Of a DNA stretch of 64,000 nucleotides, positions 1,682 to 64,000 are shown piece after piece (positions within the stretch are counted from its first letter, which is position 1; every line of letters begins with the position of its first letter). Both the position numbers and the translations under genes were made by a program. The DNA is from Stegostoma tigrinum. Taxonomy: Eukaryota. The notes under the pieces are model-generated. The model had not been told where the DNA came from. It worked only from the letters and a program-made list of their open reading frames with translations, and ran no database searches. The stretch lies in assembly GCF_030684315.1 (NCBI RefSeq), contig NC_081357.1, forward strand, positions 70,288,629 through 70,352,628, read 5' to 3'.

Positions 1682-2262
1682 CTGGAGAGATAACAATCCC
1701 TAAAAGACACCTTCAAGAATCAATACAAAATAAGCATATATCCATGAATGATGCTGAGGAAGAATTTCAAATCAAATTGTTCAATCTATAACACATGCTG
1801 AAGCCTACAAGACACATGCTACAACGGGTGCATGTTCAGTATGAGATAATGCACAATAGTCAGACAATGTGAACTAATGTACAGAGTCATGAAATTGACT
1901 TTCAAAAATGGAAAGAAGGAGTATTTAAATGAAAATATTCAAGATTTACTGGAAGTACTATGTTGGGCTAGCAATGTTATATGAATATTGAAGAATGTGC
2001 TTCTACATGCATTAGTTAAAGGGTAATTTTAAGATTGTATAACTAACTGGTTAGCCAAAATACAAGATATTGACCTGGGTTTTGCAGTGAGCAATGAAAC
2101 AATGACACTCCTTGCTTACATCATGGAAAGCACCTTACACAGATCCAGCAAACTTTGTCACCCAGACTTCCCCTTTGCCTTTAGCAATTTCAATTTCTTG
2201 CCAAGTTAAGGACACCACAGGCAATACAGCAACAGTAGTATAAGCAAGTATCCAATCAGTTT

Positions 2263-2433
2263 GAGATAACACAGTATGGAGCTGGAGGAACACAGCAGGC
2301 CAGACAGCATCCGAGAAGCAAGAAAGTTGACGCTTCGGGTCAGGTTGGGACCTGATGCTGCCTGGCCTACTGTGTTCCTCCAGCTCCACACTGTGTTATC
2401 TCTGACTCCAGCATCTGCAGTTCTTACTATCTC
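2263..2433 (+). mobile_element. PLE-end-derived fold-back mini-element (family 1)
   Basis: Inverted arms GAGATAACACAG...CTGTGTTATCTC plus a 31-nt tail TGACTCCAGCATCTGCAGTTCTTACTATCTC. Flanked by TCCAATCAGTTTGA (2251-2264) and TCCAATCAGATTGA (2432-2445). Confidence 0.85.
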
Positions 2434-4569
2434 CAATCAGATTGAAGTGTTTTCATGGGAGGCCAACCAGAAAATTACAAGCACTGACACCATTTCACTT
2501 TTAATTTAAAATTGAAGAATGCAAAATAACTGTTCTTTGATTTTTCAGAAATAAAATCTAAAATAAAAATAAACAATATTTTAGAGAAAACTATTGCAAA
2601 AGCATGCGGAATTTTTTTTCACATTGGAAACAACTGACATTCTGCGAATATAATAATAGTTTTCTAAGGCAGTATTTAACTCTAATTATTAGGTCACTCA
2701 GGCGCGCCATTTTAAAAAAAAGTTACACCTCATTCAACAACATGTGAATGCAAGTGTTCATCAGTTCATGGGTTTACTATAGTTTGGCGTCTGGGTGACC
2801 TCAACCGCGCACCTTCTCAAGTGCTGTAGTATTACTGACCGTAGCTTCAACTTTTCTATAATGTATTGTGGATATACAGATGCTCAAAGTTGTGACTGTC
2901 AAAGTTTCCATTACCTTCAGTGCGGTAAAGATAGTTAATGCTGAGTTTTGCTGTCAATGCAAAATCTGGGCCATTACCTTGTAAAACAGTATGCTGAATG
3001 TGTAGAGAAAACAGCGGTAAAGACATTCCAGAAATTAGATTTTCAGGTTACAAACAAGGATTTAGAAATTCTAATTGATTTTTCAGGGAAGAGGTTTCAG
3101 AAATTGTATGACTGAGGTCATAAGTAGTTGATTGTATGATAATATTTGCATTACTTCAACGCAAGTTCAAATTTGCAGCAATGCAAACTATGAAGCCATG
3201 TGTCAAGAACATTTCAGTACTTTGATACCTTGAGGTGGTTTGCTCATCCCATTTCATCTTCATAAGAAGCAGATACATGAGGTGGACCATAGAATACCTA
3301 GAAAATTCATGAATTTTATTTTATTATATTAACAAGGAGCCCATTTGTCAATTTGCAAAACGTTGTGTCCTCTAAACCAAGGTCTGTTAGCTCTCTGCTA
3401 GAAGCTATGGGTTCAAGTTTCAGTCCAAGACTGTAAGGAGCATTATCATGCGGTCAAGCTGGTTGATAATCAATCTGCTAAATCTTTTAGTATGCCATGA
3501 GAGACAGTAAGAGCTGACAATGCACCTTGCCATATCTAAATATGGCACAAACCTCTAATAAAAATGTACGGGGACTCTATATCACTGAATGAACGCAACA
3601 GAAGATACTCACAAGATAGCCTTTTGATAAAAAAGGTGAAATTAAATTAGTAGAAGCACCTTCTGTGACATAATAGAACATTCAGAGAAAGAACGTAACC
3701 ATCTCAACAAAGAAGGCGGTGGGCAATATACATGTTAATGCTGGTGACATATAGCTATGAAGTATGGGCGTTAGGTAAGAAACAAGAGATTGAATCAATG
3801 GGTTCGAAATATGGTGTTACAGAAGAATGTTAAAAGTCAATTGGTAGAGTAAGCGATAATGTTGTTTTGGTTTGAATGAAAGAAAGACAAACTTGTTGAA
3901 GAGCAGCACTGAAATTTGTCATTGCTTGGGATGCAGCTGGAGGATCGAATTGCAAAGTATTAATCAACATCATAGATGTTTACTTTGAGGGTAAAAGAGT
4001 GCAAAGATGACAGAGACGAATGTAGATGGATAACATGAAGTCCTAATGGAAGGACTACCGGAGATAGAGATACGTGACAAGCCATGACCAGCAATCTTTG
4101 GACGACCAAAGATACTACATGAATGGAAGCAAAAGGCAGGCAACAATAAAGCACTGAGGCAATGTTCTTGTTCTATCATTCTTGCATTGTTGTTAGCATG
4201 ATTATGCAAAGTACAGATTAACTATTGTTGAATTCCATCAGACAGTTTTATAGCTGGTACTTTCATGGACTGAAACAGTCTTGATGAGGAACCAATACAT
4301 TCACTGGGGTTAGTGAGTAATAAAATTGCTCTTTCTTTCATTTGAGAAAACTTTGTGATTGGTTTCTTAAGGGTTACAGTAAAAATATTTTACTTTTAAT
4401 TTGGAAAAGGTTTTAGAGGCCTTCATTTGTTAGTTCAGAACTTGAATATTCTGTCAAGAGACATTTTGTTGGAAGTTTTCCATCATGCAGTTTTATGTCC
4501 ATCTCTAAGAATACCAATTTAAAAGGCAAATCAACATTATTCCTGTTTCAGAGGAGAGTGATGATTACT

Positions 4570-4862
4570 TGGTATGAGGACCCTGATTGTAAGCATTAAC
4601 CACATTGCTGAGTCTGGAATCACATGTATACCAGACTGGGCAAGGATTCTCTAAAGGGAATTACTGAACCAGATGTTTTTTCAAACAATTGATGACAGTT
4701 TCATAGCCACCATTACTGTGGTTAGCATTCAATTCCAAAATTATTAATTGATTTTAGATTCTACCAGTGCCATTATGACATTTGAACCTATGTACTCAGA
4801 AATAAGTCTGGGCCAATAGATTACAGGTTCAGTTGGTGTGCCACTACACAACTAATGTCCCA
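4570..4862 (-). mobile_element. tRNA-derived SINE family B, diverged copy
   Basis: CCACATTGCTGAGTCTGGAATCACATGTATACCAGACTGGG...ATTTGAACC aligns by eye with the other family-B copies. Confidence 0.7.
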
Positions 4863-7308: not shown

Positions 7309-7804
7309 AGTTACTTGCTCTTGAGAATCAGTGCAGCATTTAACAGCTAGCACGGATTCCTGGTTCTGACACCAAGAATGTTTATGGGAAGCTCACTCCC
7401 TGCTCCCAACAACGGTGCCGCAGTCCTTTGACATATATTGGGCTGTCCCCTGTTGGCCATCTATTTGGATGGAAGCTGGGCGGCTCCAGCTGTGTCACTG
7501 AGTGGTGCATCAAATCCTCCTAAAGAAACACAGCCGGATGCAAGGCAAGTCTTGGAGTCAAAAACAGAAGTTGTAGCATTTGTGAAGAGAAATCAGGCTG
7601 AACCTTTCGGGTCGAGTGACCGTACCTAAGAACTTTCTTAGAAGTCTTGGGGTCTCTCCGCAGGATTGCGAGCAGCACGGCTGCGGGGGGCGAGTTGAAC
7701 AGGGCATGACTGAGAAAGGAGGTTCATCAAGGATGCACCTTCTTCCTACCTGTTCGCAGCCCTGGCCCTCTCCAAAACCTGGCTGGATGTTTGGTAAAAG
7801 CACA

Positions 7805-7875
7805 CAATTAGTAATTGGCTGCTGAGACGTCTCAGTAAAGAGAGATTTAGGCTGTGCCTCCGCCCTCTATAAAAC
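7805..7875 (+). promoter_or_regulatory. Core-promoter-like motif cluster within a second CpG-retaining region (~7400-8640)
   Basis: In order: reverse CCAAT (ATTGG ~7814), perfect 14-bp palindrome CTGAGACGTCTCAG (7822-7835), GC box CTCCGCCC (7858-7865), TATAAAA (7868-7874). Confidence 0.45.
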
Positions 7876-10129: not shown

Positions 10130-10370
10130 TAACAGAAAAATCTGGAAAATCTCAGCAGGTCTGGCAGTATCTACGGAAAGAAATCAGAGTTAACATTTCA
10201 GATCTAGTGACCCTTCTTCAGAACTACAGAACTCCAGAACCGAGGAAGGATCACTCGACCTGAAATTTTAACTCTTATTTCTCTCCACAGATGCTGCCAG
10301 ACCCGCTGAGCTTTTCTAGAATTTCTGTTTTTATTTCTGGTTTACAGCATCCACAGTTTTTCAGTTTTTA
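10130..10370 (+). mobile_element. PLE-type fold-back mini-element (family 2)
   Basis: Inverted arms (CTCAGCAGGTCTGGCAG.../...CTGCCAGACCCGCTGAG) meet at two opposed hammerhead motifs, followed by a tail containing CAGCATCCACAG. Confidence 0.8.
10188..10225 (-). ncRNA. Minimal hammerhead ribozyme motif (mini-element family 2)
   Basis: Minus strand reads AGTT-CTGAAGA-AGGGTCACTAGATCT-GAAA-TG-TT-AACT: stem I AGTT/AACT with both cores intact. Confidence 0.65.
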
Positions 10371-11154
10371 TTGCAATTTATAACATGCATTATTGTTCTG
10401 CTAAGATCTTTGCAAGGCTATAAAAAATAATTAACAGTGTAGAGATATAAAAAATTGGATCAGCAGTAAAATCATCTGGCATGTTGAGTCTGCCAGGCCA
10501 GTCAAGATTGTGGCTGATTTAATTTGGCTTTTGCTCCACTTTCCTACCAGCTACTTATAACCCTTGTCAATCATACATTCTGTCTAACTCAAGCTTTGAA
10601 TATATTCAATGACCCAGTGTTCACTGCTCACTGGGAGATAGAATTCTAAACACTATAGTCCTCTAATGGAAGAAATTCTTCCCTAGCTCCACCTTAAATG
10701 GCAGGCCCTCTAATTTAAAACTGTGGCCACTAGTTTTAAATTCCCAATGATGGGAAAAATCCTCTCAGACTCTACACAGTCAGGCCTCCTGAGAATCCTG
10801 TACGTTTCAATAAGAGATCACATCTCATCCTTCTGAATCCCAATGTGAATTGGCCCAAACTGCTCAACCTTTCCTCATATGGCAACACTTTTGTCCAAGG
10901 AATCAGTCTAGTGAATCATCCCTGAACTGCTTCTAATGTACGTATGTTTGTCCTTAAGTAAGGTGACCAAAACTACATGGCATGTTCTCAACAATACCAT
11001 ATACAGATACAGGATGTGGCAACTCTTCCCTACTTTTATACTTCATTCTTCTTTCATAAAAGCCAACATTCCAATTGCTTTTTTAATTACATGCTGTACA
11101 TGCATTGTGATTTGCTGTGTTTCATGTACAAGGACACCCAGTTCCCTCTGTTCT

Positions 11155-11965
11155 AATGGGCCAAGGAGTGACAGATGGAGTTTAATTTAGGTAAAATGTG
11201 AGGTGTTGCACTTTGGTAAGGCAAACCAGGGCAGGACTTATGCGGTTAATGGAAGGTCCATGGGGAATGTTGCTGAACAAAGAGACATAGGAGTGCAGGT
11301 GCATAGTTAGTTGAAAGTGTAGTCACAGGTAGACAGGGTGGTGAAGAAGGCAAATGGCACGTTTACCTTCATTGGTCAGACATTGAGTACAGGAGGTGGT
11401 ATGTCATGTTGCGACTGCACAGGACATTAGTGAGACCATTTTTAGAATACTCCTTATAATTTTGGTTGCCCTTCTGGAGGAATTATATTGTTAAACTTGA
11501 GAGGGTGCAGAAAAGATTTACAAATATGTTGCTGGGATTGGACGGTTTGATTTATTGGGGGAGGCTGAATAGGCTGGTGCTATTTTCCCAGGAGCTTCAG
11601 AGACTGAGGGGTGACCTTAAAGAGGTTTATAACGTCATGAGGGGCTTGAATAGGTGAATATCTATGGTCTTTTCCTCAAGGGGTGCTCAAAACTAGAGGG
11701 CATAGGTTTAAGATTTAAAAAGGACCTGAGGAGTAACTTTTTTCATGCAGAAGTTTGTGTGTGTATGGAAGGAGCTGCCAGAGGAACTGGTGGAGACAGG
11801 TACAATTGCAACACTCAAGAGGGATCTGTATGGGTAAATCAATAGGAATTATTTAGAGGGTTGTGGGCCAAATGCTGGCAAATGGGATTAGGCCAGATTA
11901 GAATGTTTGGTCAGCATGGATGAGTTGACCGAAGGGTCAATTTGTATGACTCAAAGATTCTATGA
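11155..11965 (+). mobile_element. CR1 LINE 3' portion nested in an older CR1
   Basis: KCEVLHFG, LVRPFLEY, IVKLERVQKRFT, RLRGDLKEVY and tail GACCGAAGGG...TATGACTC...TTCTATGA. Confidence 0.9.
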
Positions 11966-12477: not shown

Positions 12478-12605
12478 AAGGCAAGGCATTCCAGGTGCTG
12501 CTAGTCTGAAATAAGAGCAAAAACAAAGCTGGAAAAATTCAATGAGGTCAAGCAGCATTCGTAAAGACAAAGAGTTAACATTTTGAGCCAGTGGCGTTTC
12601 TGAAA
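12478..12605 (-). mobile_element. PLE-type mini-element (family 2), diverged, inside a CR1 fragment
   Basis: GGTGCTGCTAGTCTGAAATAAG...GCTGGAAAAATTC...GCAGCATTC...AGAGTTAACATTTTGAG resembles the other family-2 copies. Confidence 0.55.
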
Positions 12606-13299
12606 AAAAATGACTAACTCAATATGATTGTTTAATTGTTTTCTAATTATGCTTTATGATGTGTCTAATAATATTTTCCCGTGACCAGTATTGAACTAAC
12701 TAATCATTAATCTCCTTCTTTCTGTCTCCTTCATCTCTCAAATAAAGGCGTTATGTTTGCAACTTTCCGATCTGTTAGGATCTTTCCAGAGTCTTGAGAG
12801 TTATGGAAGATTACAATCAATGTGTCCACAGTCTGTACAGTCACTTTTTACGACCCTAGGATGGAGGCCATCTGGTCCAGGATTCTCTTCAGCTTTAAGT
12901 CCCATTTTAAAACAAAATTACTTGAGTGATTTTTCTAAATACTCCTTTCCACTTTGCCACATGAATTTTAACTACCCTTGGTGATTTTTGTGACTTCTGT
13001 TGTGAAGGCAGATGTACAATATTTGTTTAAAGTTTCTGCTGTTTCAATGTTTCCCATTATTAATCCCTCTTTCTCACTAAGGGACCAATGCTTACTTTAG
13101 CTACTCTGCTTTTATGTACTTTCAAGATGTTTTTTAAAAACATAATTCATTAGTTTTCCGTTGTAATTGTTAAACGATCACAGTTTAAGCTGAGTTCAAT
13201 GCATTGTTCATATGTGAACGTTTTATGGACTGGATTGCGTATGTATCAGATACTTGAGAGGTAAAACTAAAAGTAAGTTGAGTTGTTTATTTGCTAGTT

Positions 13300-19913: not shown

Positions 19914-20258
19914 TTTTTTAAATACCCATTCACACATAAAATATAGCTTTTGCTGAATAGGCCAGCATTTTGTTGCCCATCCCTAATTGACCAGAAGGCA
20001 ATTAAAAGCCAACCGTATTACTGTGAGTCTGGAGTCACATGTACACCAGACAGGGTAATGAAGACAGATTTCCTTCCCTGAAGGACATTGGTGAACCAGA
20101 TGGGATTTTTCTAATAATGGTTTCATGGTTATCAGATATCTGCTGAATTCAAATTCAGCCATCTGCCATGGCAGGATTCAAACCTGGTCCCCAGAAGATC
20201 ACCTGGGTCTCTGAAACTAACAGTCTACTGATGATACCATGAGGCAATCACCTCCCCT
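19914..20258 (-). mobile_element. tRNA-derived SINE family B (in the presumed TMEM200A intron)
   Basis: Reverse-complement homolog of 872-1224, including tail and tRNA-like head. Confidence 0.85.
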
Positions 20259-20339
20259 GACAATGTTCTATTTCACTTATGTTTAATATGTCTTTAATTA
20301 ATAATCTGCAATTAATTTACAAAATAACAAATGTTGTGA

Positions 20340-26699: not shown

Positions 26700-26812
26700 A
26701 GTACAAAGAACTGCAAATGCTGAAAATCAGAAACACTAACAGAAAAGGTCTGGCAGCATTTGTGGACAGAAAGTGAAGTCAATGTTTCAGGCTCAGTGAT
26801 CCTTCTTTAAAC
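26700..26812 (-). mobile_element. PLE-type mini-element (family 2)
   Basis: AAAGAACTGCAAATGCTGAAAATCAGAAAC...GGTCTGGCAGCATTTGTGG...ATGTTTCAGGCTCAGTGATCCTTCTT; ends at a decayed hammerhead. Confidence 0.7.
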
Positions 26813-27203
26813 TTTTCTTCAGAATACAGGGAAGCACTTAGTCCATAACATACAGGCATTTTACCAAGAAACATCACCAGATGTACTTAGAACTTAAAGC
26901 ACAAAAACAATCTTTTCAGTTAATAAATTTATATAGATGTACATGATCTACACAAACCTGTTGATACCTGCCATTAAGTCTAACAGCATAATATATTCTT
27001 CCTTTACCTCTTGCATTCAACTGCATGCTGTCACTCAGCAACACCATTTAAAAGCACACATAAGGTACCCCAGATGCATCAACAATGTCCGTCTGTATCT
27101 CATTATTCTCTCATGTTTCCACTGTCTCTAAATTGTCAGGTTGTCTGTTCAAAATTCAGCACTTGACATCAAAATTGTTCTTCAACCAGATTCTAGAGAA
27201 ACA

Positions 27204-27295
27204 GAGATAATAAAGTGTGAAGCTGGATGAACACAGCAGGCCAACCAGCATCTCAGGGGCACAAAAGCTGATGTTTCAGGCCTAGACCCTTCATC
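27204..27295 (-). mobile_element. PLE-end-derived mini-element (family 1), single arm
   Basis: GAGATAATAAAGTGTGAAGCTGG...GTTTCAGGCCTAGACCCTTCATC. Flanked by TCTAGAGAAACAGA (27192-27205) and TCTGGAGAGACAGA (27294-27307). Confidence 0.8.
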
Positions 27296-27404
27296 TGGAG
27301 AGACAGAAGTCATTGCCTACGAACACTGCTGCAAATTGTGTACAATCACCATCAGCTCTATACATCTCAGTGACAAGTATTTGAAGCTGAACCAAACTTT
27401 TGAT

Positions 27405-27512
27405 AAACAAAAGCAAATGCTGCCAATGCTAGATATCTGAAACAAAAACAGAAAATGCTGAAGTACTCAGCAGGTCTGTCAGCATCTGTAAAGAAAGAAG
27501 CAGTTTCAGATC
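27405..27512 (-). mobile_element. PLE-type mini-element (family 2), single arm with tail
   Basis: AATGCTAGATATCTGAAACAAAAACAGAAAATGCTGAAGTACTCAGCAGGTCTGTCAGCATCTG. Confidence 0.7.
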
Positions 27513-27664
27513 TGAGGATAAATGTAACATCTTTATTTAGAAATGGAAGGGGACTAACGCACGTAACTACAGATAGTTAGCTTAACACCTATTGTGGGGA
27601 AAATGTTCAAAACCTTTCTTCAAAAATAAACCAAGACAAAATACGTCTCTTAAAGCCGCAGCAT

Positions 27665-28030
27665 CATCACAGAGGTTTGTAAAATCATGGTGGGCACAGA
27701 TAAGATGAATAACCAAGGTCTTTTTCCCCAGAGTAGGGGAGTCCAAAGCTAGAAGGCATAGGTTTACAGTGAGAGGGGAAGGATTTAAAAAAGAAAAGAG
27801 GGACAACTTTTTCACACAGCAGTTTGTGCGTATATGGAACAATCTTCCAGAAGAAGTGGTAGGGGTGTGTACAGTTACAACATTTAAAAGATATTTGGAC
27901 AGGTACATGGATAGGAGTGGGATATGGGACAAACACAAGACAAATGAGACAAGTTCAATTCAGGAAAGGCATAGGTTAGTTGGGCTGAAGGGCCTGTTTA
28001 ACTGCTGTATACCTCCATGACCCTATGACA
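27665..28030 (+). mobile_element. CR1 LINE 3' end
   Basis: NFFTQQFVRIWNNLPEEVV...TFKRYLDRYM and the CR1 tail. Confidence 0.88.
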
Positions 28031-29243: not shown

Positions 29244-31575
29244 GAGTCAATAGAGTGTGGAGCTGGAGGAACGCTACAGATCAGGCAGCAGGGAAGTCGA
29301 TATTTCAGGTCAGGACCCTTCATCAGGACTAGGGAGGGGAAAGAGAGGTCAGAAAAAGGGGGTGGGACTGGTTGAAGGAAGGTGGAGTTGTAATAGATGG
29401 ATGCAGGTAGGGGGTTGTGGAAATTAGTCAATGGGAAAGGTGGGGCAGCTAGGTGAGAAGGAAGATGGTCGTGTCAGGGCAAGGAGGTGGAGATGAGAGG
29501 GAGGGCTTGACGTGCGTTGAGACTGGGGGTGGGAAGATTTTGAAGCTAGTGAATTCTATGTTGAGGCCATTGAGCTATAAGCTCCGGAGGTGTTGCTGGG
29601 TATTGTTCTTCCAATTTCCATGCAGACTCATTGTGATATTGGAGAAAGCTAGGATTGACATGTCAAGGGAGTGGGAAGGGAGTTGAAATGGCTGGCAACT
29701 GGAAGGTGATATTACTTAGAGCATACAGAGCGCAGATGCTCTGTGAATCTGTCACCGAGTCTGCGCTTGGTCTCCCCAATGTAGAGTGGAGCACATTAGG
29801 AGCAACGAATGCAGTAGACTAGGTTAGAAGATATACTGGTGAATCCCTGTTGGATGCACAATGATTATTTGGGGCCTTGGATGGAAGTGAAGGGGAGGTG
29901 TATGGACAGCTGTAGCACCTCCTGCGGTTGCAGGGAAAGGTGCCGGGTGTAGTGGGGTTAGTGGGAAGTTGGAGTGGACGAGGGAGTCGCAATGTGAGTA
30001 ATCCCTAGAAAAAGCAGATGGGGTGGGGAGTAGAATATCTACTTGGTAGTAGGGTCTGATTAGAGGTGGCAAAAGTGGTGGAGGATTATATATTGGATTC
30101 GGAGGTTGGTGAGGTTTATGTGAGCACCAGGGCTGTCCGCCCTTGCTGTTGTTGGTGGGAGGGGGTTAGAGGGCAGAAGTGAGGAAAATGCAGCAGATGA
30201 GGTTGATGGCATTACAAATCACAGGAGAGGGGAAGTTATGGTCCTTGAAGTAGGAGGAATTCTTGGATGTCTGGGAGTGGAATGCTTCATCCCTGGAGCA
30301 GATGCAGCAGAGGTGGAGGAATTGGGAGTATGGGATCACATCTTTGCAAGACGGTGGGTGAGAGGAGATGTAGTTAAGGTATCCATGGGAGCCAATGGGT
30401 TTGAAATAGATGACAGTGCTGAGTCGATTGCCAGAGATGGAGATAGAGAGGTCCAAGAAAGGGAAAGTGGTGTTGGAGATGGTCCAGGTGAATTTGAGGT
30501 TGGGGTAAAAGGTGTTGGTGAAGTGGATGAACTTTTTGAGTTCCTCATGGGAGCATGAGTCAGCATCGATGTAGTCATTGATATAGTGGAGGAAGAAGTT
30601 AGGGATGGTGGCTGTATAACAGCAAAAGAGGGACTGTTTCACATGTACTACAAAAAGGGAGGCATAGCTCAGACCATGTGGGTGTCCATAGCCACCCCTT
30701 CAGTTTGTAGGAAGTGGGAAGAGTTAAAGGAAAAGTTACTAAGGGTGAGGACAAGTCCTGTCAGGCAGAAGAGAGTGCCAGTGGAAGGCAGGTGTTTAGG
30801 CCTATGGGAGAGGAAGAAACAGAGGGCTTTTAGGCCCTCCTTGTGAGGGTTACAGGTGAAGGGAGACTGAATGTCCATGATGAAGATGTGGTGTTGAGGG
30901 CTGGGGAATTGAAAGTCTTGGAGGAGGTGGAGGTTATTTGTAGTGTCCCAAATGTAGGTGGAGAGTTCCTGACCCGGGGAGAGAGAACAGAGTTGAGCAA
31001 GATGGAGATGAGTTCATTGGGGCATGAGCGGGCAGAGACAATGGAAAAACTGGAGTTATGTGGGTGCGGAACAATCATGTTGGAGGCTGTAGACAGGAGA
31101 TCTCCTGAGGAGATGAGGTTATTGATGGTCTGGGAGATGATGGTTTGGTGATCAGGGGTGGGGTTATAATCGAGGGGATGGTAGGAGAAGGGTCGGAGAT
31201 TTGGTGTCTAGCCTCAGTGATATAGAAGTCAGGAGACCATATCACCACCGTACCCCTTCTCCCTTATCAGCAGATTTAATGGCGAGGCTGGGGTTGGGGT
31301 GGAGGGAGTGGAGAGCTGCGTGTTCTGTGGGGGAGAGGTTGGAGTGAGTGAGAAGGGTGGAGCGACTAAGGCGATTAATTTCACGATGGCAGTTGAGATG
31401 AAGAGATCGAGGGAGGGTAGAAAGCTGTGGAGTGGAGTCCAGGGGCATGAGATTTGCCAGAGGTGGGAGAAGGGGTCTGCAGAGGGTGTGTTGGACTCCC
31501 ATTCGAAGAAATAAGTGCAGAGGTGGAGGCATTGGAAAAAAGAGTTCAACATTGAGGCATGTGTGGAATGTTTTA
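29244..31575 (-). mobile_element. Penelope-like retroelement (Neptune-type), decayed and 5'-truncated: RT + Zn knuckle + GIY-YIG + terminal hammerhead
   Basis: Minus-strand fragments: IKSADKG; FLQTEGVAM; FFLHYINDY (YIDD motif); LKFTWTISNTTFPFLDLSISI; FKPIGSHGYLNYISSHP; IPYSQFLHLCCICS; PCNRRRCYSCP; LVYCIRCS*CAPLYIGETKRRLGDRFTEH. Many stops and frameshifts. Confidence 0.92.
29295..29330 (-). ncRNA. Minimal type-I hammerhead ribozyme motif at the PLE 3' end
   Basis: Minus strand reads AGTC-CTGATGA-AGGGTCCTGACCT-GAAA-TA-TC-GACT: stem I AGTC/GACT, intact CUGAUGA and GAAA cores, stem II AGG/CCT, self-complementary ATAT at stem III, and C at the cleavage position. Confidence 0.75.
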
Positions 31576-33098
31576 CACTGCTGTCTGACCCAGCAGTGAA
31601 CTTTCACAGCTACTGCCTCTGCTGTTTGATTTCAAATAGCTCTGGACATTGGTGTTTTTCCAAGAAAAATAAACAAAGAGTGAGCTTTACAGCTGAACTC
31701 GGAGAAACCTGTGTGGGGTGATCACAGCAGGGGAGCAGCTAAGTGACTAGGTTTTTAACTAAATCTTCAACTGTTGAGTAGAGTGGGTTCTTTTTGATGA
31801 TATGTTTTTATCAATATCGGTCTCTTGATTAAACTTTAAAAGTATAAAACATTGTTACTAAGTGAGCCTGGAGTAGTGTTTTTAGAGCAGTAAGATTGTT
31901 CTTTTTTCTAGGTCTGTAGATTGTGAATGTACAAAGATAGCCCTTAGTAGATTGATATGCTCTTCCTGTTGAATGTCGGAGATTAAGGAGAGTTTCCATG
32001 TTACTGATGATTGCGTCTGCAGGAAGCGTGCTTAGTTCCTATAGGATCACACGGATCAGTTGAAGAGGCAGCTAGAGGCACTGAGGAATTTACAGGAGCT
32101 GGGGGAATGATGGATGGCAATTGCGGAAAGGGAAACAAACTGAAGATACAGTCAGGTAGATGGGTTACTGCTGGGAAAGATAGGAGGGGTAGACAGGTTG
32201 AGTGGGAGTCTCCTGTGGCTATCCCCATCTCAAACAAGTATGTTTTGGAAAATATTGGGGGTGATAGACTCTCAGGGGAATGTAGCACTGATGGCCAGGT
32301 TTCTGGTAACAAGACAGGCTCTAATATAACAAAGGGGAAGCCAGGTTCCAAGTAATTGACTGTGATTGGGGCCTCTTTAGTGACAGGCACAGACAGACGT
32401 TTCTGCAGCTGACAACACGACATCAGAATGGTGTCTTGCCCCCCGGGTCCAGGATCAAGGAAATCTCGGAGAGGGTGCAGAATATTCTCAAAGGGGAGAG
32501 GGACCAGCAAGAGGTTGTTGTACACATTGGAACTAATGACTTAAGAAGAGCTAAAGACGAGATTCTGGGAACAGAATTTCACAAGTTAGGTAGGAATTTA
32601 AAAAGTACGTCCTTGAGGGTTACTTCCAGTGCCACAAGCGAGTGAGAGTAGGTATAGGAGGATAGAGCAGATGCATGTGTGGCTGAGGAGCTGGTGCAGG
32701 GGAGAATGATAGGCATTTTTGGATTGTTGGAACCTGTTCTGGGATGGAGGTGACCTGTATAAGAAGGACGGATTGCATCTGGATTGGAAGGGGATTAATA
32801 TATTGGCAGGGAGGTTTGCTAGAACTGCTTGGGAAGATTGAACCTGGTAAGCTGCGGGGTTCGGTGGAGGGAGGTAAGGGTAAAGGCGCGTGCATTTGCT
32901 GTGTGACCCAGGGAGATAGAGAGGAGTCTGAGACTGTTACAACTGTGCAAAGTAGAAAATCAAACAGTCAGGGCAGGCAAGAACAAAGCAGGGACTGAGG
33001 TAGGACTGACAAATTTAGCTCCATTTATTTCAATGCAAGAGGCCTAACAGCTAAGGAAAATGAACTCAGGATGTGGCTGGGGACATGGGACTGGGATT
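31576..33098 (+). mobile_element. CR1 LINE 5' portion: 5'UTR, decayed ORF1 (Cys motif + SGNH esterase) and start of the ORF2 endonuclease
   Basis: ICSSC...CVCRK, PVAIPISNKY, VIGASLV (GDS block), VVVHIGTNDL, KDGLHL, then IYFNARGLTAKENELRMWLGTWDWD, where similarity stops. Confidence 0.85.
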
Positions 33099-33829: not shown

Positions 33830-34530
33830 AAATTGTGCATAAACTATTGAAATGGAAGACTGCAGGGAACAGTTAGTAAAGCATGCAGCACTCTGTGTAT
33901 ATCAATAGTTACATAAAATGTGGAAAATATATCCTTGTATTAAAAAAAAACAATTTGGCCTTGATTGGAGTATTGTATCTAGATCTGGGCATTACACTTT
34001 TGGAAGAATGTCAAGGCATCAGTGAGGGTGCAGAACAGATTACCAAAATTTGTTCCAGGGATGAGCAACTTCAAAGGTAGAAGATTGGTGTGAAATTTGA
34101 TGAAGGTAGTCAAAATTATGAGGGGGCTGGACAGAGCAGACAGGGAAAAACTGGTGGAAGAATGCAGGCCTAGAGGCACATATGTGAGGTAATAAATAAA
34201 AGAAGCAATGATTACACCAGGAAAGTCTTCTTGTCTGAAAGTGTGGTGGCAGCCAGTACAACTGCAGCATTCAAGAGACACGAGTTCTGAGGCAAGATTT
34301 TAAATTTGTTTCTTCCCACAGTTGTTGCCCGACTTGATTATAATTCCAACATTTGCTGTTTTCATTTAATGCAAAAGAGAACTTGATTATTATTTCAAAA
34401 GGATGAACTTGCAGGGCTTTGCAGAGAAGGAAGGGAATGACATGTGATGAATAGTTCTTTCAGAGAGTGAACAGAGAAATGACTGACTGAAAGATCTCAG
34501 TCTGTGTTGTAGCCATATTGAACAATATTG
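33830..34530 (+). mobile_element. CR1 LINE 3' fragment, highly decayed
   Basis: TTGGAGTATTGTATCTAGATCTGGGC...GAGGGTGCAGAACAGATT, followed by a CR1-like tail. Confidence 0.65.
34283..34367 (+). mobile_element. Diverged PLE-type mini-element (family 2) inside a CR1 3' end
   Basis: AGTTCTGAGG...TTCTTCCCACAGTTGTTGCCCGACTTGATTA...TTCCAACATTTGCTGTTTT interrupts CR1 sequence. Confidence 0.5.
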
Positions 34531-37069: not shown

Positions 37070-37423
37070 AATATTTGTTCACAGGGTGAGGGTGTTGCTG
37101 ACTGGGCAGCATTCATTGCCCTTCCTGAATTGCCCAAAGGGCAGTTAAGAGTAAATGACATTACTGTGGGTCTGAAGTCACATGAAGGCCAGACCAGGTA
37201 AGGATAGCAGTTTCCTTCCTGAAAGGACACTAGTGAATCAGATGGGTTTTTGCAACATTTGACAATGGATTCATGGTCACCATTAAGCTTTTAATTCCAG
37301 ATATTTATTGAATTTAAATTCCACCATCTGCAATGGCAGGATTTGAACCTGGCTGCCCAGAACGTTATCTGGGTCTCTGGATTAGCAGTCCAGTGATAAT
37401 ACCACTAGGCCATTGCCTCCCCC
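37070..37423 (-). mobile_element. tRNA-derived SINE family B
   Basis: Reverse-complement homolog of 872-1224 over its whole length. Confidence 0.85.
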
Positions 37424-37989: not shown

Positions 37990-38900
37990 AATATCTATTG
38001 TTGGCAAGAAGGGAACCACAAGTCAGGTTGCGAGCAACATACTATGTCACCAATCAGCCAATGGCTTAAGTTATTGTGGTGGATGGAATAGGGCGATCAG
38101 TTGTGGTTGATTAGTGAACCATGGCTACTGCCAGGTTGGCAGATATTCACATCGTAATGCTCTGTGATGGGTACACACCGATAGCACTCTGGGGGAGTGG
38201 TAGCTCTTGCTGTTGTGGTACTTCTCCTCATTAATATGTGGGATCCACAGATCCACAAGCCTGGGTAGCACCTTATACCACTGAGAATTTCCTGGTAAAA
38301 ACCAAAAGAACTGTGGATGCTGAAAATCAGAAACAAAAGCAGAAATTGCTGGAAGAGCTCAGCAGGTCTGGACGCATCTGTGGGGAGAAGTCAGAGTTAA
38401 CATTTTGGGTCCAGTGTTCTGAGGAAGAGTTACTGAATGTAAAACGTTAACTCTACTTTTTCTCCACAGATGTTGCCAGACCTGCTGAGCTATTCCAGCA
38501 ATTTCTGTTTTAATTTCCTGGTGAAACCTGATAAAGCCATCCGTTCACTCTACCTGGTCACCTCCAGCAAATAAAAATCTATTAATCTCCTGATGTTCAA
38601 TACCTCCGTCATCTCCCCAATGCTGTGATACATCACTAAACAGGAATTTTTGCCCACGTTGCCTGTTCCTATTCAAAGTGTCCTCTGGTGTAAAGATTGA
38701 GTGTCACAGTTACACGTACAGCTCCTGGCAGGATAATCCTCCTCTGGTATCTGGCTGTGGGTCCACTTGCAGAAGATCTCACAGATCAATACCTACCTGC
38801 TCAGTGAAACACAAAACACTTTATGCACTGTTCCTGGTTGAGGTGGAGATGGTAGACAGTGTCAATGAAGTTTCTAACACAGTACCTTACACTGATGGCC
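37990..38900 (-). mobile_element. PIF/Harbinger (HARBI1-like) transposase relic
   Basis: Ordered minus-strand peptides across frameshifts: LNQEQCI, DLLQVDPQP, LPGAVRVTVTLNLYTRGHFE, HSIGEMTEVL, FSVV*GA, YHNSKSYHS, VNICQPGSSHGSLI, HWLIGD. They parallel the HARBI1-family motifs LPVAVKV..ALNFYA.GSFQ, GFP.V.GAID, NRKG.HS, PGS.HD and WLLGD. Confidence 0.75.
38301..38511 (-). mobile_element. PLE-type fold-back mini-element (family 2) inserted in a Harbinger transposase relic
   Basis: Tail plus inverted arms AGAAATTGCTGGAAGAGCTCAGCAGGTCTGG / CCAGACCTGCTGAGCTATTCCAGCAATTTCT. TSD AATTTCCTGGTAAAA (38286-38300) / AATTTCCTGGTGAAA (38512-38526). Confidence 0.85.
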
Positions 38901-46694: not shown

Positions 46695-46820
46695 TTCTGA
46701 AGAAGGACCACTGGTCACAAAATGGTAACTCCATTTTCCTTCCACGGTTGCAGCCAGATGTGCTGAGTTTCTCCAGCAGCTTCTGTTTATCTTTCAGATT
46801 TTGAGCATCTGATGTTTTAC
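46695..46820 (+). mobile_element. PLE-type mini-element (family 2), single arm with tail
   Basis: Starts at TTCTGAAGAAGGACCACTGG (hammerhead 5' core), then GCAGCCAGATGTGCTGAGTTTCTCCAGC and a tail with GAGCATCTG. Confidence 0.65.
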
Positions 46821-47749
46821 TTTATCCGTCTAAAATTCTGCCTATATCTTCAAACGCTTTGTCCCACCCAATGCCCCACTACCCTGACATATTTTTCAAT
46901 GTCCTTCAATTTTATCTCCCTTCTTTGCTTTCCCATCACTCACCAATTAATCTCTATCAGTCATGGCTCATACCTAACATTCATAACTTCATCTTACCTC
47001 TACACCTTCAGCTTTGTAGTAAACCTCACAGTTCTACTTCACAGCTCTCAGTCACTGACTATTCAACTAAACAGCCACCTCACCCAAATCATATTAATTG
47101 GGCTGAATTTTATCACAAGGTCACTAGAAATATGTGCCCTTCTGCTTGCCAAACATAGTCGTGATGCAGACAGCTAATTAACTTGGAGGTGGTACTGAGT
47201 CAATGCTGTGTCAGCCAGGAAACAAGATGTCAGCTTGGGTAATATAATTCACTGATGATTGGTTTCATTGAAAGCCTATCTGACTGGTTGCTGGACCTTG
47301 CTATCTGACTATCTGCACTCAGCAACTGAACAAAAGCGTGTAGTGACAAGGAAAGCATGAAGATACCAGCAGACCCCATGGTTTTCTGATGTCTCCAGAT
47401 TGTAAAAGCAAAAGGGGAGGCCCTCTTCCCAAGGAAAAGTAGATTCAAAGATGTTTATATGACACTTTTAATTTCCAATGTGCCTTGATTCCTGACAGTA
47501 GATTATGCAAGTACTCATTTTGAAACTAAATTAAATGGTGGTAAGTATTGCATTAAGAGTCTTATGCATCCGATCAAGAAAGGCATGCAGAGGAAGCCAA
47601 CTCACAATAAATTACTTCCCAACGATGAGTGCAGAGCCACAAATGCATTAATGGCTTCCTTTGGTCTTTGAAGATGAGTTCAAAAATTCCGTTTTCTTCT
47701 TTGGGGTTTGCATGTCATAACATGAGAGAAAGTGCTGTGTGGCAGGGAG

Positions 47750-50879: not shown

Positions 50880-52230
50880 AAAGAAGGCATATACTAAAAG
50901 CTGACAAGCTCCCAGATCCAAATGGATGTCATCCTAGTTTCTTGAAATAAGTGACCACTGAAATAGTAGACACGTTTGCTTTACTTTTCCAAAAGTCTCT
51001 GGAAAGAGATCAAGTTGGAAAATAAAGAAAGTGACTTCTCTGTTCAAGAAATTGGATAGCAAGAAGGAACCGCAAGTCAGTTAGCTTAACATCTTTCATT
51101 GGGAAACTTCTGAGGTCTATTACTAATGAGTTATAACAGTGCACTTCAGAAAATCACAATGTGATCAAGCAGAATCAACAATGTTTTGTGAAATTGAAGT
51201 CGTACTTTAATAATTTATTGGAATTCTTTAAATAATTAACAAAAAATGTAGATAAACGTGAACTTGTGGACATAGTATCCATGGATTCCTAGAAAGTAAT
51301 TGACAAGATGGCATGTCAAAGGTTACTAAACAAAGTAAGATAACAAAGTGTGAAGCTGGATGAACACAGCAGGCCAAGCAGCATCTCAGGAGCACAAAAG
51401 CTGACATTTTGGGCCTAGACCCTCCAGCATCTGCAGTTCCCATTATTTCTAAACAAAGTAAGAGCCTGTTTTGCAGTGTGTAACATGTTTGAACAGATAC
51501 AAGATTTCCTGGTTGGCAAAACGTCACGAGCAGAATGCCATAAGGATCTGTACTGGGGCCTAAACTATTTACAATACATATTAATAACTTGGATGGAGGA
51601 ATTGAAGGCATGGTTCTAAATTTGCTGATGACACAAAGATCTGTAGAAAGGTGAGTTGTGACAAGGACTTGAAGGGTCTGCATATTGTTCGAGATAAGTT
51701 AATTGAGTGAACTTAAATTTGGCAAATAGATCAAATGTAGGACAGTATGAATGAGCTCACTATGGCAGGAGGAATAAAAAAGCAACATATTATTTTAATT
51801 AGGTTGTACAAGGCATTTCTAAAACCAGATGTAGAGTAGCGTGTACAGTATTGGCTATCCTATTTAAGAAAGGACATAATTATAACGAAGTAGTTCAGGT
51901 TTGCTTCACTGATTCCTGAGATGAGGAATGGTTGGATAGATTGAGCAGATATCTTTTGGAATTTTGAGGAATGAGAGGTGATCTATTGAAACATATAATA
52001 TTGTCAGGGGATTTGACAAGATCAATGTCAAGGAATATTTTCCCTTGTAGGAGAGGCTTGAACTAATGGGTGAAATTTAGAAATAAAGGTTTGAAGACAA
52101 AGATAAAGAACTTCTTTTTCTGCCAGAGGTTTGTGAATCTGTGGAATTATCCTCTCCAGACAACAATGGAAACAGGGTCGTTGGATATTTTTAATGTTGA
52201 GGAGGCAAATAGGTTTTTGAGACTAACAAG
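50880..52230 (+). mobile_element. CR1 LINE RT to 3' region, decayed
   Basis: PDPNGCHP, PLFKK, GSVLGPKLFTIHINNLD, KFADDTK, RMRGDL. Confidence 0.85.
51338..51450 (+). mobile_element. PLE-end-derived mini-element (family 1) inside CR1 RT
   Basis: Inverted arm fused directly to the tail CCAGCATCTGCAGTTCCCATTATTTCT. Perfect 15-bp repeat CTAAACAAAGTAAGA (51326-51340 / 51449-51463); removing the insert restores CR1 RT codons RLLNKVRA. Confidence 0.9.
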
Positions 52231-55824: not shown

Positions 55825-56370
55825 TCCTATTTGCCTGCATTTAGCCCATATCCCTCTAAACCCTTCCTATTCATATACCCATCCAGATGTTGCAATTGTA
55901 CCTGCCTCCACCACTTCCTCTGGCAGCTCATTCCATACATGCAGCACCCTCTGTGTAAAATAGTTAACCCTCAGGTCCTTTTACAATCTTACCCCTCTCT
56001 CCTTAATCCTATGTCCTCTAGTTTGGACTCACTCACCTAGGAAAAAGACAATGGCTCTTCACCCTGTCCATGCACCCCTCGATTTTAGAAACTTCTATGA
56101 GGTCACCCCTCAGTCTCTGATATTCTAGGGAAAAAAAGGCCCAGCATATTCAGCCTCAAAACCTCCAATCTCAGCAACATCCTTTTGAATCTTTTCTGCA
56201 CTGTCTGAAGTTTAACAACATCCTTCCTGCAGAAGGACAACCAGAATTGTACACTGTGTTCTAAAAGTGGCCTCACCAATGTCCGGTACAGCCACAACAT
56301 GACTTCCCAACTCCTATGCTCAATGTTATGACCAATGAAGACAAACATGCCAAACGTCTTCTTCACTATC
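55825..56370 (-). mobile_element. CR1 LINE 3' portion
   Basis: ORF 56103-56366: LYRTLVRPLLEHSVQFW...DVVKLQTVQKRFKRML. Confidence 0.88.
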
Positions 56371-56810: not shown

Positions 56811-59168
56811 TCCCAGCATGTTGGCAGCAGGATCCTAGCCCATTCCTTCAACGCTCGGTTAAGTCAAAGGGGTTTAGGGCTCTTCAGCACAACCACAGAA
56901 GTGCAGGGATCCAGACTTCAGCCAAAGGTGGATCAAAGTTGCCATGTTCCTGATGAATGAGATAGCACCACATGTAGGGCAAGCAGACTTTCAAGTCTTA
57001 ATGTTGAGTGGTGCTGCGATCGGCACCTCATTGCTTATCCTCATTTATCCATTGGGTGTGCCCTGCATCTCCAGTTCATTTGCTGACTGGCCACTATGCC
57101 AGCACAATTGACTGGCAGTATGTTGCTCATTCAGCAATGGCAACTGCTTCCTGCCACTGTTGAGACTATGTGCATACAATTCAGCCTTAAGTGCATTTTC
57201 CTCAACATTATACTCACTTGGAAACCCAGCTGTTTGAAAGGTTGGGGAAGCAAATTGCTAGAAACCTGGGCGGAAGCATTCATGGCCACAAATTGTGCCA
57301 GAAAGGCTCACTTTCCAGGTGCAGTCATGAAAAAGAGATAAAATGGGAGGCACACAGTCTCATTAAAACAACAAATGTGTGTGCAGCTCCTGAAAGCAAG
57401 TTTGTCATTTTTGCATCAGAAGCAAAAATGGACATGTTTTAGGCAGGCCTGTGGCTCACGTTGAGATTTAGTTTTTACATCCAGAAAAGATAAACACATT
57501 CACATGGGGCAGGTGCTAAAATTGCATTCACAGTCTCCTTCGAATATTTCATCCAATTATACTAAAATTTGATTCATTATTTACTTATTAATGCCTTTTC
57601 TGATGTAGAGTAGATTGGACAGCAGTATGACATGTTTTTCTTCTGAATCTAACTATAACAGATTCTCTAATGTTCAGACATCTGCAACACACCTTTGTCC
57701 CAGGGGTTCTGCTAATAGTAATATATGCATGTTGAAATATCTTGATGTATTAGTTCCAACAAAATGTTTATGGATTACATCATACTGACAATTCATATTA
57801 TTGTGTGCACTAATATTGGGCAGAGACCTTTGTTACTATTGCCTGACAATCTGCAGGCCTCAAAATGGTAAACCATTCTTTTTTGTCTGAAGGATTCAGA
57901 ACAAGTAAGCTTGTCTGTTTGTCCATGCCAAGGGCATGTTAAAACCAGTGACTTATAACTGCAATGGAGTGGAGTGCACTGAGCAGCAATGCAGTATTTG
58001 CCAGTGATGAAAGTAAATCAGCTTTATGTTTTTATCCCATTTGCGTAAATGATTCCAATTGTGATAATCACCAGTCAGAATGTACTATCTGGCAAATAGT
58101 ACCTAAATGTGACTGAACGTCCAGAATGGGATTTTCTATTATTAGCCATGAGACGCTAGGTTACCAAAGAGCTGTAAAACCAACTGTCTGGGCTTTGTAA
58201 CACTTTTAGATATGCAACTACCCACCACACTAAATCTAGAATGAATTATCACTATGGACACAAATGCCTAGGGATTCCAACAAATCTGTGCAGATGAAGC
58301 TACACTTTTCACAGCCAATCACTTCTTAGTTCTGGAAATAACTGCCGAAAGAACTAATAAGACATAACATCAGGGAAGGGAATAATCAAATTTGGGATTT
58401 AGACTCAGCTTTTATAGCAAGAATTCCAATGACCCAATTATGTCTATAAAAGTGCCCTCATGAATATTTCTGAGAGTGTTTCAAGTGTGTTGAAACAGAA
58501 TTGTCTCTGTATGTTTTTATTTCTTAATATTCAGGTTTAGAGATTAACTTTGCAATAATATTGGAGGAATATGTGGTATGTTCCTGCTTGCTATTTAAAC
58601 AGGCCATCAACCTTTTAAAGTAACCAGCTAATACATGTTAAAATAGTGAACACAAGATTGCCAAAGAAAGGCACAGAGCATTCATCCTCTAATATCAATA
58701 AAAATAAATTCCTGGTCCCTTTGCTTTTCTCTGAGATTTGGATAATCCTGGAATTAAGCTGCCCTTTATCTGCAATTTAAAATCTTCTTCAGATGTTTCT
58801 TGTCGTTATGTGTTGTGTATTGAAATGAGCAGAATGATTACTATGGCAGAAATTAAGTTGAAACTATCCAAAGCCAAAATGAAAACATCCAAAATCGTAA
58901 AGCTTCAGTTTTAAGTGCTATAACTTGAAAAAACATTTGTAAGCATTAACAATGTCTTATAAGCTTCCACCACATACATTCATTATTGAGCTAGAAGTAA
59001 CAGTGTGCGATCATAACAAATTACATATGCCTCAGAGACCTGAAAAGTTCAATAAATTAATGACCAATTAACCAACTAACCATGTAGTGCACACATGGAA
59101 GGCCCCAAAGGGCAAATGCATTTATATATAAAAAAATGCCAAGCAAAAGCATAGTATAAGAAGTTAAA

Positions 59169-59375
59169 GAGATAACAAAGTATAGAGCTGGATGAGCACA
59201 GCAGGGCAAGCAGCACCTTAGGAGCACAAAAGCTGACGTTTCGGGCCTAGATGAAGGGTCTAGGCCCGAAACGTCAGCTTTTGTGCTCCTAAGATGCTGC
59301 TTGGCCTGCTGTATTCATTCAGCTCTACGCTTTGTTATCTCGGATTCTCCAGTATCTGCAGTTCCTACTATCCCT
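59169..59375 (+). mobile_element. PLE-end-derived fold-back mini-element (family 1), best-preserved copy
   Basis: ~82-bp inverted arms around ATGAAGGGT, a 34-nt tail (59342-59375), and a perfect TSD GTATAAGAAGTTAAA (59154-59168 / 59376-59390). Confidence 0.92.
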
Positions 59376-59559
59376 GTATAAGAAGTTAAATATTATTCTA
59401 CAACTATGTACACTTGTTGAAGCTTAAAAAGAAAGAGGCAAGGCAAGACCTTCAAGAAGGAAATAGTTTGGAAACAGTTTAAACATCCCCACAACGAGGG
59501 AAGGCCATCCAAAACTAGGACTCTCTGAATGACAAAAAAAGTAAAAATGATAGTCAATG

Positions 59560-60285: not shown

Positions 60286-60289
60286 AAAG

Positions 60290-61850: not shown

Positions 61851-62471
61851 CCAAAAGTGATCCCAATGTGCCAAAAATCTAAACCCTCCCTTCTACACCA
61901 TCCTTCAAGCCATGAATTTACTTTCTTTGCTTGAATAGTGAAGTTTATGGCAAGGCTAATATTTCTGAGATTGCAACCTCGAAAGTCCTACATTTCAATT
62001 TACTCCCTAACCCCTGAAACTCCTCCCGCAAGTCTTCCACACTTGCCCTCCCTATGTTGGTGGTTCACCATACCTTTCCAAAAGTTTATCCACATATTCC
62101 ATTATGCCCTGAACCCTTGCACTTGGAAGGCAGTAGATCATAGGGGACTCAAGTCCCTGCTGCAAAAATTAGACTGTCTATCCCTTGAACTACTGAGTCA
62201 CCCACTACTATTATTACCTTTCTAACCCAGCCTACCAGCCTCTCTCTATTTTTCCAGAGCAACTATTCTTTGACACTGGGTCCTCTGCAAACTCCTTCTC
62301 TGTCATGGTGAGGGGGCTGACGTCTCCCACAATTCTCCTCTGTCACCTCCCACCAATGCCCTCTATTGGATACTCTTCCTCCTTTTGAGCACTGGATCCT
62401 CTATATTCCCCTGGTCTTGAAGAAGACAACTTTCCAGGATGATGGAAGCAAAGCTGACACCAAGTTACATT

Positions 62472-62600
62472 TCTAAAGAAGAGTCCAGACCCGAAACGTC
62501 ACCTTTTCTGCTCCTCTGATGCTGATGGGCCTGCTGTGTGCATCCAGCTCTACACTTTGTTATCTCAGATTCTCCAGCATTGGCATTTCCTACTACCTCT
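62472..62600 (+). mobile_element. PLE-end-derived mini-element (family 1), direct arm plus tail
   Basis: Begins TCTAAAGAAGAGTCCAGACCCGAAACGTC (mutated hammerhead). Flanked by ACACCAAGTTACATT (62457-62471) and ATACCAAGTTAAATT (62601-62615). Confidence 0.85.
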
Positions 62601-64000
62601 ATACCAAGTTAAATTGCTTTGTCAAAGAATCAGCACAGATACAATAAGTTAAATAACTTCCTGGTGTACTGTAATACTCAACAGAGAAGAAATATTGATT
62701 TTCCACCTTCTTGTGTAGTGTGCAATTTCCCTAATATTTGCATCTTATAAATTATTAAACTGATTTCAAATTTGCATTCGTCACCTGATAGTTCGATGCA
62801 TATAGGTTGTTCTACAGAGACTGCTACATGATCATGGGAACAAATATATCACCATGACAACTATAATCACCTTGGAGACTGATTACAACTAGTAGGAGCC
62901 ACATGGAAATCTCATCAGGGGATTAAGAACAAATTACACCAAAGCTCTCCTTAACTATCTGATTGTGACAATGAATTTAACACAAAAAGTAATTTGAAAT
63001 TTAATAGCATCCCTTAGTTGATTGATTTCATTCAAATATACTTTGAAAATATTACACATTCTTATTATTGAAAGACTTTAATTTGGAAAAATGAGTATTG
63101 GGTTAATTTAAAATCAAATATATTCTTTTTAACGCTTCTAAAAACATCTCAGTGTATGGCAGATATTTAAGATTTCTTTGGGAGAAATTACCTCTGACGT
63201 TCTCAAAAATCACTTTGAATGAAAGAATCCCCTTTGGGCTTCGTAGAAATGATACAAATAGATATTTGGACAACTTTTATTTATGCTATTATCACCTTGA
63301 GAGAAATGAGGCAATAAATGTTACAGCATTTGAATATGAATTGCACTGCCTTAAAGTGCAAATTTCATCCCAGCATCATGAAGTCTTTAAATAAGTGCTG
63401 TGTTTTTTTTAAAAAATCTGTACCGTATTTCTTAATTGAGCTTAGCAACATTCCTGCATCCCTTTAAATAAAGTTCTAATCAAAATTTCTTTTTTTTAAT
63501 CTTTACCACAGTTGAAATGCAATGAAATCTGTAGATAAGTATCAGGAATTTATTGCGAAAAGAAAATGCTAGTGATAAAGTAAATTTAGAAAATATTAGA
63601 ACTCAATTTTCAGCAACAAATCTCAAATCCTTTCCTTGTGAGCATGATTTCAAAGACATGAAATATGCATTTATCATCTGTGTCTTAGCGCAACCAGGGG
63701 CACACAAAAGAAAAACATGATGAGGTTTCAGAGGAGCTGGAAAGATATTTGTCCCCCATCACATTTGACAATGATTCCAATATAGCTGTTCTGGTACTGT
63801 GACAACACTGTCTTTTACCTGGCAATGTGAACAATGTCTCAGCTATGGCCTGTCCATAAAAACTAGGACAAATCAACTCTGACCAAGTACTATCCTACCA
63901 GGCAATATTCGATCATCAGAAGTCATGAATGGTGTTCACAACAGTTCTATCAAGCATACTCACTCAGTAACAATATGCTCAGCATTTGCTAAGTTTGAGT

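Follow-up and report, generated by a model that had tools for sequence, protein, structure and literature searches.

A total of 64,000 base pairs (bp) of Stegostoma tigrinum DNA (NCBI RefSeq assembly GCF_030684315.1, contig NC_081357.1, positions 70,288,629 to 70,352,628) were examined for short dispersed insertions with hammerhead ribozyme motifs and for the remains of a long Penelope-like element (PLE). This stretch, hereafter the window, is vertebrate DNA with a GC content of 40%, and all copy counts, lengths and 5' ends given below refer to it. Short copies were located by a self-search of the window and by nhmmer. The self-search recovered all 12 elements in two families that a first-pass annotation had listed, together with a further family-2 copy at 7560-7641. 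The resulting 13 short insertions range from 82 to 242 bp, make up 2.9% of the window and occur once per 4.9 kb; the weakest by nhmmer are those at 34283 and 12478 (E about 4e-4 to 7e-4). A very high genome-wide copy number of such stubs is plausible. Each arm of a copy comprises, in sense order, the helix I 5' strand of a hammerhead, a CUGANGA box, an extra A, helix II, a GAAA box, a palindromic minimal helix III and the helix I 3' strand, beyond which lie an arm of ~65 nucleotides (nt) and an optional tail of 34-40 nt. Positions are numbered with C3 of the hammerhead as +1, which places the cleavage site at +29/+31, and the 5' start of each insertion was read by hand from the alignments. Copies with two head-to-head arms are called fold-backs, and copies are referred to by a position near their left end (7566 for the added one). 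The short insertions and the long element are as follows.

2263..2431, tail-less arm on the minus strand, short filler, tailed arm on the plus strand: family-1 fold-back, starts about +13 and about +42, duplication 2251-2264 / 2432-2445
7560..7641, minus strand: family-2 tail-less arm, internally deleted, start -4, 7-nt inverted snap-back at the 5' end, 12/13 duplication
10131..10372, tail-less arm on the minus strand (intact hammerhead core, start -4), tailed arm on the plus strand: family-2 fold-back, duplication not significant
10219-10241: junction of the preceding copy, with the element's first 7 nt three times, separated by single-base spacers
12478..12625, minus strand: decayed family-2 tailed arm, start about +13, possible remnant of an inverted start after the arm
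26700..26825, minus strand: family-2 tailed arm with an internal deletion, first ~11 nt duplicated at the 5' end, starts -2 (outer) and about -4 (inner)
27204..27297, minus strand: lone family-1 arm without tail, start between +1 and +5, both ends overlapped by a 12/14 duplication
27405..27515, minus strand: decayed family-2 tailed arm, start about +12
29244..29330, minus strand: 3' end of the long element, a complete minimal hammerhead (helix I 4/4 pairs, both core boxes) plus a tail-less arm
29331..31580, minus strand: body of a decayed, 5'-truncated, putatively Neptune-type PLE with a DKG motif, a reverse transcriptase (RT) core, a CX4CX2C linker and GIY-YIG
34283..34370, plus strand: highly decayed family-2 arm, start -4
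38301..38511, tailed arm on the minus strand (start +13), tail-less arm on the plus strand (start -3/-2): family-2 fold-back, duplication 38286-38300 / 38512-38526
46695..46826, plus strand: family-2 single tailed arm, start -2, duplication not significant
51339..51448, tail-less arm on the minus strand (start about +8) joined directly to a tail alone on the plus strand: family-1 copy, 15/15 duplication 51326-51340 / 51449-51463
59169..59375, tail-less arm on the minus strand (+12), tailed arm on the plus strand (+3): family-1 fold-back with the most alike arms (92%), 15/15 duplication 59154-59168 / 59376-59390
62472..62602, plus strand: single tailed arm related to family 1, start -1, duplication 62459-62471 / 62603-62615

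The 5' ends of the short insertions stop at a sharp limit at helix I. The furthest 5' end lies at -4 in 7566, 10130 and 34283, between -3 and -1 in 38301, 46695, 26700 and 62472, between +1 and +5 in 27204 and 59169, and between +8 and +13 in 51338, 27405, 2263 and 12478. Nine of the 13 starts thus fall within the 9-nt stretch from -4 to +5 and all 13 within -4 to +13, with none at the cleavage site and none upstream of -4. The limit is positional, since tailed and tail-less arms share it despite a length difference of ~35 nt. It does not agree with simple random truncation, for which the P value is about 1e-8 under the most favourable geometric model, assuming independent copies. The same limit is found in both families, which a tree separates at 99/98. 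Three junctions pivot on the element's first bases, namely the triple 7-nt reiteration of 10130, the ~11-nt duplication of 26700 and the 7-nt snap-back of 7566, and such reiterated or folded-back first bases suggest that the enzyme had reached the end of its template. The triple repeat is what a telomerase-related RT might leave if it realigned several times on reaching the end of its template. Among the eight insertions reaching upstream of +1 or to -1, three (7566, 10130, 34283) retain an AG preceded by unrelated bases, with 26700 (inner start) as a doubtful further case. In the long element, 29327..29352 on the minus strand holds a branch-point-like motif, a pyrimidine tract and an AG at 29330-29329, at the 5' edge of helix I; its boundary A fits an initiator-like YYANWYY and also stands in an acceptor-like context. 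An acceptor-like pyrimidine-AG also occurs upstream of an ATG inside the family-2 arm.

The 3' ends of the short copies fall into two classes only, tail-less or tailed, about 34-40 nt apart, and all five clear two-armed copies (2263, 10130, 38301, 51338, 59169) combine one end of each class. Families 1 and 2 are related yet distinct, with cross matches at E values of 1e-4 to 5e-2. Divergence from the family majority is 12-40% in family-2 arms versus 6-18% in family-1 arms, and family 1 has subfamily structure. The head-to-head junction is different in every fold-back copy, which indicates that the hairpin formed at insertion and was not inherited. The first-pass annotation had described the copies as free of poly(A) and of a transfer RNA (tRNA) head, and we agree: no poly(A) tail is visible on any short copy, no tRNA gene overlaps a copy within the scanned intervals 1-27900 and 29000-64000, and Rfam gives no RNA polymerase III (Pol III)-type head on any of them. 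None of the four tandem rows in the window overlaps a short copy, leaving them without head-to-tail repeats.

Flanking repeats were assessed by comparing the flanks of each insertion with 2993 random flank pairs, with boundaries set by eye and a slack of ±8 nt that was identical in test and null. Significant direct repeats of 13-15 bp flank seven of the 13 copies, matching at 15/15 positions in 59169 and 51338, 14/15 in 38301, 13/14 in 2263, 12/13 in 62472 and 7566, and 12/14 in 27204 (p=0.008). Six of these copies are among the 12 listed earlier, the same number for which direct repeats had been reported. The other six short copies have no significant flanking repeat (p>=0.1), and neither does the long element. 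The duplications also flank the single-arm copies 62472 and 27204, and the AT content of five of them is 72%, compared to 60% window-wide.

The long element (29244-31580) carries a PLE-type RT with the DKG motif present (SADKG). It is 66% identical to a whale shark protein that matches RVT_1 and GIY-YIG, and the closest named relatives of its RT come from whale shark, zebra shark and bamboo shark. Its GIY-YIG domain gives a Pfam match at E=0.0014 and 19.3 bits, below the cut-off of 22.6, with two Cys and two His of the CCHH visible. The linker between RT and endonuclease reads CNRRRCYSC and conforms to the CX2-5CxxC definition; such a linker is reported in Neptune and Nematis and absent from Penelope/Poseidon (PMC8557442), and Neptune is reported in vertebrates (bioRxiv 10.64898/2026.07.22.740005). 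By these sequence features the long element is Neptune-type, a name resting on the linker rule and Neptune's vertebrate occurrence rather than on a Neptune/Nematis tree. Homology begins at residue ~190-230 of relatives of 880-950 amino acids, leaving the N-terminal ~190-230 residues absent, and the remainder has several frameshifts, uses three frames and contains many stops. The long element thus has neither the intact open reading frame (ORF) nor the 5' pseudo-long terminal repeat (pLTR) of an active copy; Pfam finds nothing on five of its six ORF fragments and one weak spurious match on the sixth. Its 3' non-coding region is ~280 nt long and pyrimidine-rich. As first proposed, family-1 arms are homologous to its end, over the last ~85 nt at 65-79% identity with an 11-nt gap, and that end groups weakly with the 2263 arms in the tree (82/83). 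The window contains no long parent for family 2, no matching one for family 1 and no other PLE coding piece, including any of intermediate length. The long element is a decayed cousin of a different subfamily that indicates the kind of parent, and the claim that it is a driver in the same window, missing N-terminal residues, frameshifts and stops considered, is not upheld. The PLE origin of the short copies, the Neptune-type assignment and the view of the copies as discrete insertions, all put forward in the first-pass annotation, are borne out by terminal-repeat homology, the linker, tail geometry and the duplications.

The description of the copies as hammerhead-bearing holds for the family pattern and fails for most individual copies. 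Both core boxes (CUGANGA and GAAA..UH) are intact in two of the 17 arms scored, those of the long element and the left arm of 10130; misaligned rows were inspected by hand, and the scoring left out 2263 (right arm) and 51338 (tail), where the region is absent. A full hammerhead core is accordingly present in one of the 13 short copies, the other arms being decayed or cut, and because of this decay most short copies would be dead as ribozymes. The named helices are paired in 71% of cells versus 11-49% in slid controls, but not above shuffles, with one compensatory pair. An Rfam search of the window returned no hammerhead match. The exact motifs occurred at no locus in contigs from metagenomes, viruses and prokaryotes, as expected since the DNA is vertebrate. 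Rfam matches to mir-607 and MIR7723 (2261-2404, 59229-59281) lie far below the gathering scores and reflect the fold-back hairpins. If transcribed, the fold-backs could be hairpin sources of small RNAs.

The choice offered in the first-pass annotation, between truncation products and a non-autonomous class, misses a third option, run-off to a fixed template end, which fits the window best. The stubs are the hammerhead-arm-tail end of Neptune-type PLEs, and on balance we favour, with modest confidence, the view that they were laid down as dead-end run-off complementary DNAs (cDNAs) from two internal RT starts to a fixed template end. The window itself displays identity to a PLE end, two 3' ends, duplications of 13-15 bp, head-to-head arms and the helix I 5' limit. 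A biochemical precedent is the anole PAc protein, which nicks and extends both target strands and uses two internal RNA start sites, the tail being the stretch between them; cleavage is unnecessary for insertion, uncut RNA serves as template in vitro, and template is needed as far as +172 of the ORF, apparently beyond the start sites (PMC11167929). By analogy, RT would prime at one of two internal sites also near the RNA 5' end, yielding a cDNA of 100-140 nt in place of a long one, and run-off would halt where the hammerhead begins, at a fixed end of the template. One cDNA would give a single arm, while two cDNAs, one per strand and per start site, may be joined head to head to give a fold-back with one tail. 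The ribozyme would stay uncut in the template and be inert in most copies. The fixed RNA end is probably a transcription start, which would lie at the A of helix I; this step is the less well supported one. Stubs would carry none of the downstream template that PAc requires and would therefore be dead ends.

Several observations weigh against this proposal. PAc belongs to Poseidon, not Neptune. Covariation of helices I and II is not above shuffles, RNAalifold yields no consensus structure, and six of six arms folded singly do no better than shuffles. The initiator-like match is weak by itself, occurring at 1.2% of positions with four matches in the 295-nt 3' region, and the acceptor-like context is passed by three of 8581 AGs under a filter derived from the site itself. 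Penelope of Drosophila virilis is reported to have an intron acceptor at the helix I edge (PMC4209133), with the start site about 120 nt upstream (PMC2377424). The sample is 13 copies from one window, in which, with no long family-1 or family-2 parent, target duplications and unrelated flanks are the grounds for placing nothing upstream of -4. An arm-tail frame opening a PLE ORF has no match among 157 PLE-related proteins, and elsewhere it occurs in one host gene model only. Two protein-level hints come from zebra shark: the arm-tail frame opens one gene model, and another (P0159), which speaks for the proposal, contains an apparent family-1 stub starting at the hammerhead, nested in the endonuclease region of another PLE. 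Family-1 sequence lies in two zebra shark models (XP_048378042.1 and XP_059500577.1; P0158 and P0159), in the N-terminus of a host gene model and in the C-terminus of an SPTLC1 isoform model, reflecting either exonisation or an annotation artefact.

The fixed 5' end might instead be inherited, if some short copies were masters resembling short interspersed nuclear elements (SINEs), with an internal promoter and mobilised in trans by Neptune proteins. We regard this as unlikely, even though it would suit the ratio of 13 short copies to one long element with no intermediates, as well as the subfamily structure of family 1 without a matching long parent in the window. An internal promoter is reported in D. 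virilis Penelope (PMC2377424), pLTR sequences can act in cis for trans mobilisation (PMC3846280), and non-autonomous PLE derivatives are known (bioRxiv 10.64898/2026.07.22.740005, PMC8557442). A boundary shared by two families and several subfamilies would, however, require a number of independent masters, every one of them cut at the same position, and the different junction of every fold-back places the origin of the hairpin at insertion. The copies moreover have no Pol III head, their ends are PLE start sites, and PAc requires template beyond what a stub appears to contain. There is also a rather slim chance that the fixed end is a stop imposed by RNA processing or by protein, either a 3' splice site at helix I or release or cutting of cDNA at the hammerhead by the PLE ribonucleoprotein, possibly with two RNAs paired through helix III. 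Such a stop would be in keeping with the acceptor-like surroundings of the AG in the long element, with the same coincidence of intron and helix I in D. virilis, and with the four insertions that start at -3 to -1, at or after the AG (38301, 46695, 26700 outer, 62472). It would also suit the arms that end in helix II (+12/+13), namely the shorter arm in 59169 and in 38301 and, in 2263 and 12478, the one helix-bearing arm. A spliced template should nevertheless bring a shared first exon upstream of the copies, where none is seen, and three copies retain the AG; an enzyme stalled by helix I should stop at the 3' strand of that helix, and one stalled by a lariat about 20 nt further upstream.

Ordinary random 5' truncation by a poorly processive RT seems improbable given the hard edge at -4 common to arms of unequal length, the P value above and the lack of intermediate copies. 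PLEs are nonetheless reported to be heavily 5'-truncated (PMC8557442, PMC8969392), dispersed single minimal hammerheads were earlier interpreted as truncated PLEs (PMC4209133), and some arms here do stop at scattered internal points (the right arm of 2263, and 51338 with a tail alone). The retrozyme-like class suggested in the first-pass annotation is not supported, the copies having the standard PLE tail and inverted-arm geometry and lacking head-to-tail repeats. We consider it very improbable that the copies are monomers of a non-LTR retrozyme spreading via circular RNA; a type I hammerhead, a length of 80-240 nt and the lack of an ORF are shared with such elements, which derive from pLTRs and are reported in a cartilaginous fish (bioRxiv 10.64898/2026.07.22.740005), but none of the four tandem rows forms an array of the copies, the cleavage site marks neither the beginning nor the end of any copy, and the ends match PLE start sites. 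Fold-back shape and target duplications would also befit DNA transposons with long terminal inverted repeats, of the kind called miniature inverted-repeat transposable elements (MITEs). This origin we all but dismiss, since the arms are homologous to a retrotransposon end, the single-arm copies 62472 and 27204 are flanked by duplications too, the ends are asymmetric by a tail and the duplications measure 13-15 bp.

The window also contains features outside these insertions. An intact single-exon ORF at 21667-23127 on the plus strand matches DUF2371 and is a coding exon of a TMEM200-type host gene. An ARAGORN call at 37329-37416 on the minus strand marks a tRNA-Ser-like head on a dispersed repeat, with related pieces at 875-1214 and 19969-20213; the repeat is probably a tRNA-derived SINE. 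Several 3' fragments of one other repeat lie at 11212-11883, 25900-26629, 27722-28007 and 55829-56326 and are, from their translated motifs, presumably CR1-like. Broken frames with a VVVHIGTND motif at 32011-32998 on the plus strand are assumed to be like the esterase-type ORF1 of CR1/L2 long interspersed nuclear elements.

Endonuclease-positive PLEs insert as a unit of a pLTR, an adjacent inverted 5'-truncated copy, a 30-40 bp tail at one end and a target duplication (PMC8557442, PMC3846280, PMC11167929), and inverted pLTRs and 3' extensions are listed as PLE peculiarities (PMC8969392). The short copies resemble these units in their head-to-head arms, single 34-40 nt tail, duplication, AT-rich targets and hammerhead in the terminal repeat. 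In contrast, 13 of the 14 insertions here consist of only the terminal 80-240 bp, with a hard 5' limit at helix I that does not figure in the parts of PMC8557442, PMC3846280 and PMC11167929 considered here. Core boxes, short helix I, extra base before helix II and palindromic helix III are those of metazoan PLE minimal type I hammerheads (PMC4209133). Cervera and de la Pena (2014, PMC4209133) described dispersed minimal hammerheads as mostly single, with some close opposite-strand pairs, and read them as truncated PLEs; sharks are not among the genomes named, nor are target duplications and the 5' boundary analysed, in the portions of that report considered here. Non-LTR retrozymes (PMC7761336; bioRxiv 10.64898/2026.07.22.740005) are likewise short, non-coding, pLTR-related and PLE-dependent with a type I hammerhead, but are described as head-to-tail tandems with at least two same-orientation ribozymes and circular RNA, whereas the shark copies stand alone or head-to-head, with their ends at PLE start sites. 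A preprint reports that Penelope-like elements have expanded in whale shark (10.1101/443036). A literature search that did not extend to Dfam and Repbase turned up neither these shark families nor the helix I boundary.

The families themselves are ordinary shark PLE debris; what stands out is the hard 5' limit at helix I as a mechanistic clue. What the PLE hammerhead does and how the inverted structures arise are treated as open questions in the literature (PMC7761336, PMC8557442, PMC11167929). A bolder and decidedly tentative extension is that shark PLEs mass-produce strong-stop stubs by run-off at the first hammerhead base, hundreds of thousands of which would map the RNA start. Two RNAs paired through the palindromic hammerhead might then feed a protein dimer that produces the fold-backs, making the hammerhead an end marker and dimer signal and not a cutter, and some stubs may be self-propagating. 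Fold-backs of this kind may be taken for MITEs or for microRNA hairpins, and two zebra shark gene models include similar stubs. The helix I limit, lying away from the cut site, would offer an inexpensive way to read the template end in vivo from genome sequence, and it agrees with the in vitro finding that uncut RNA is the template.

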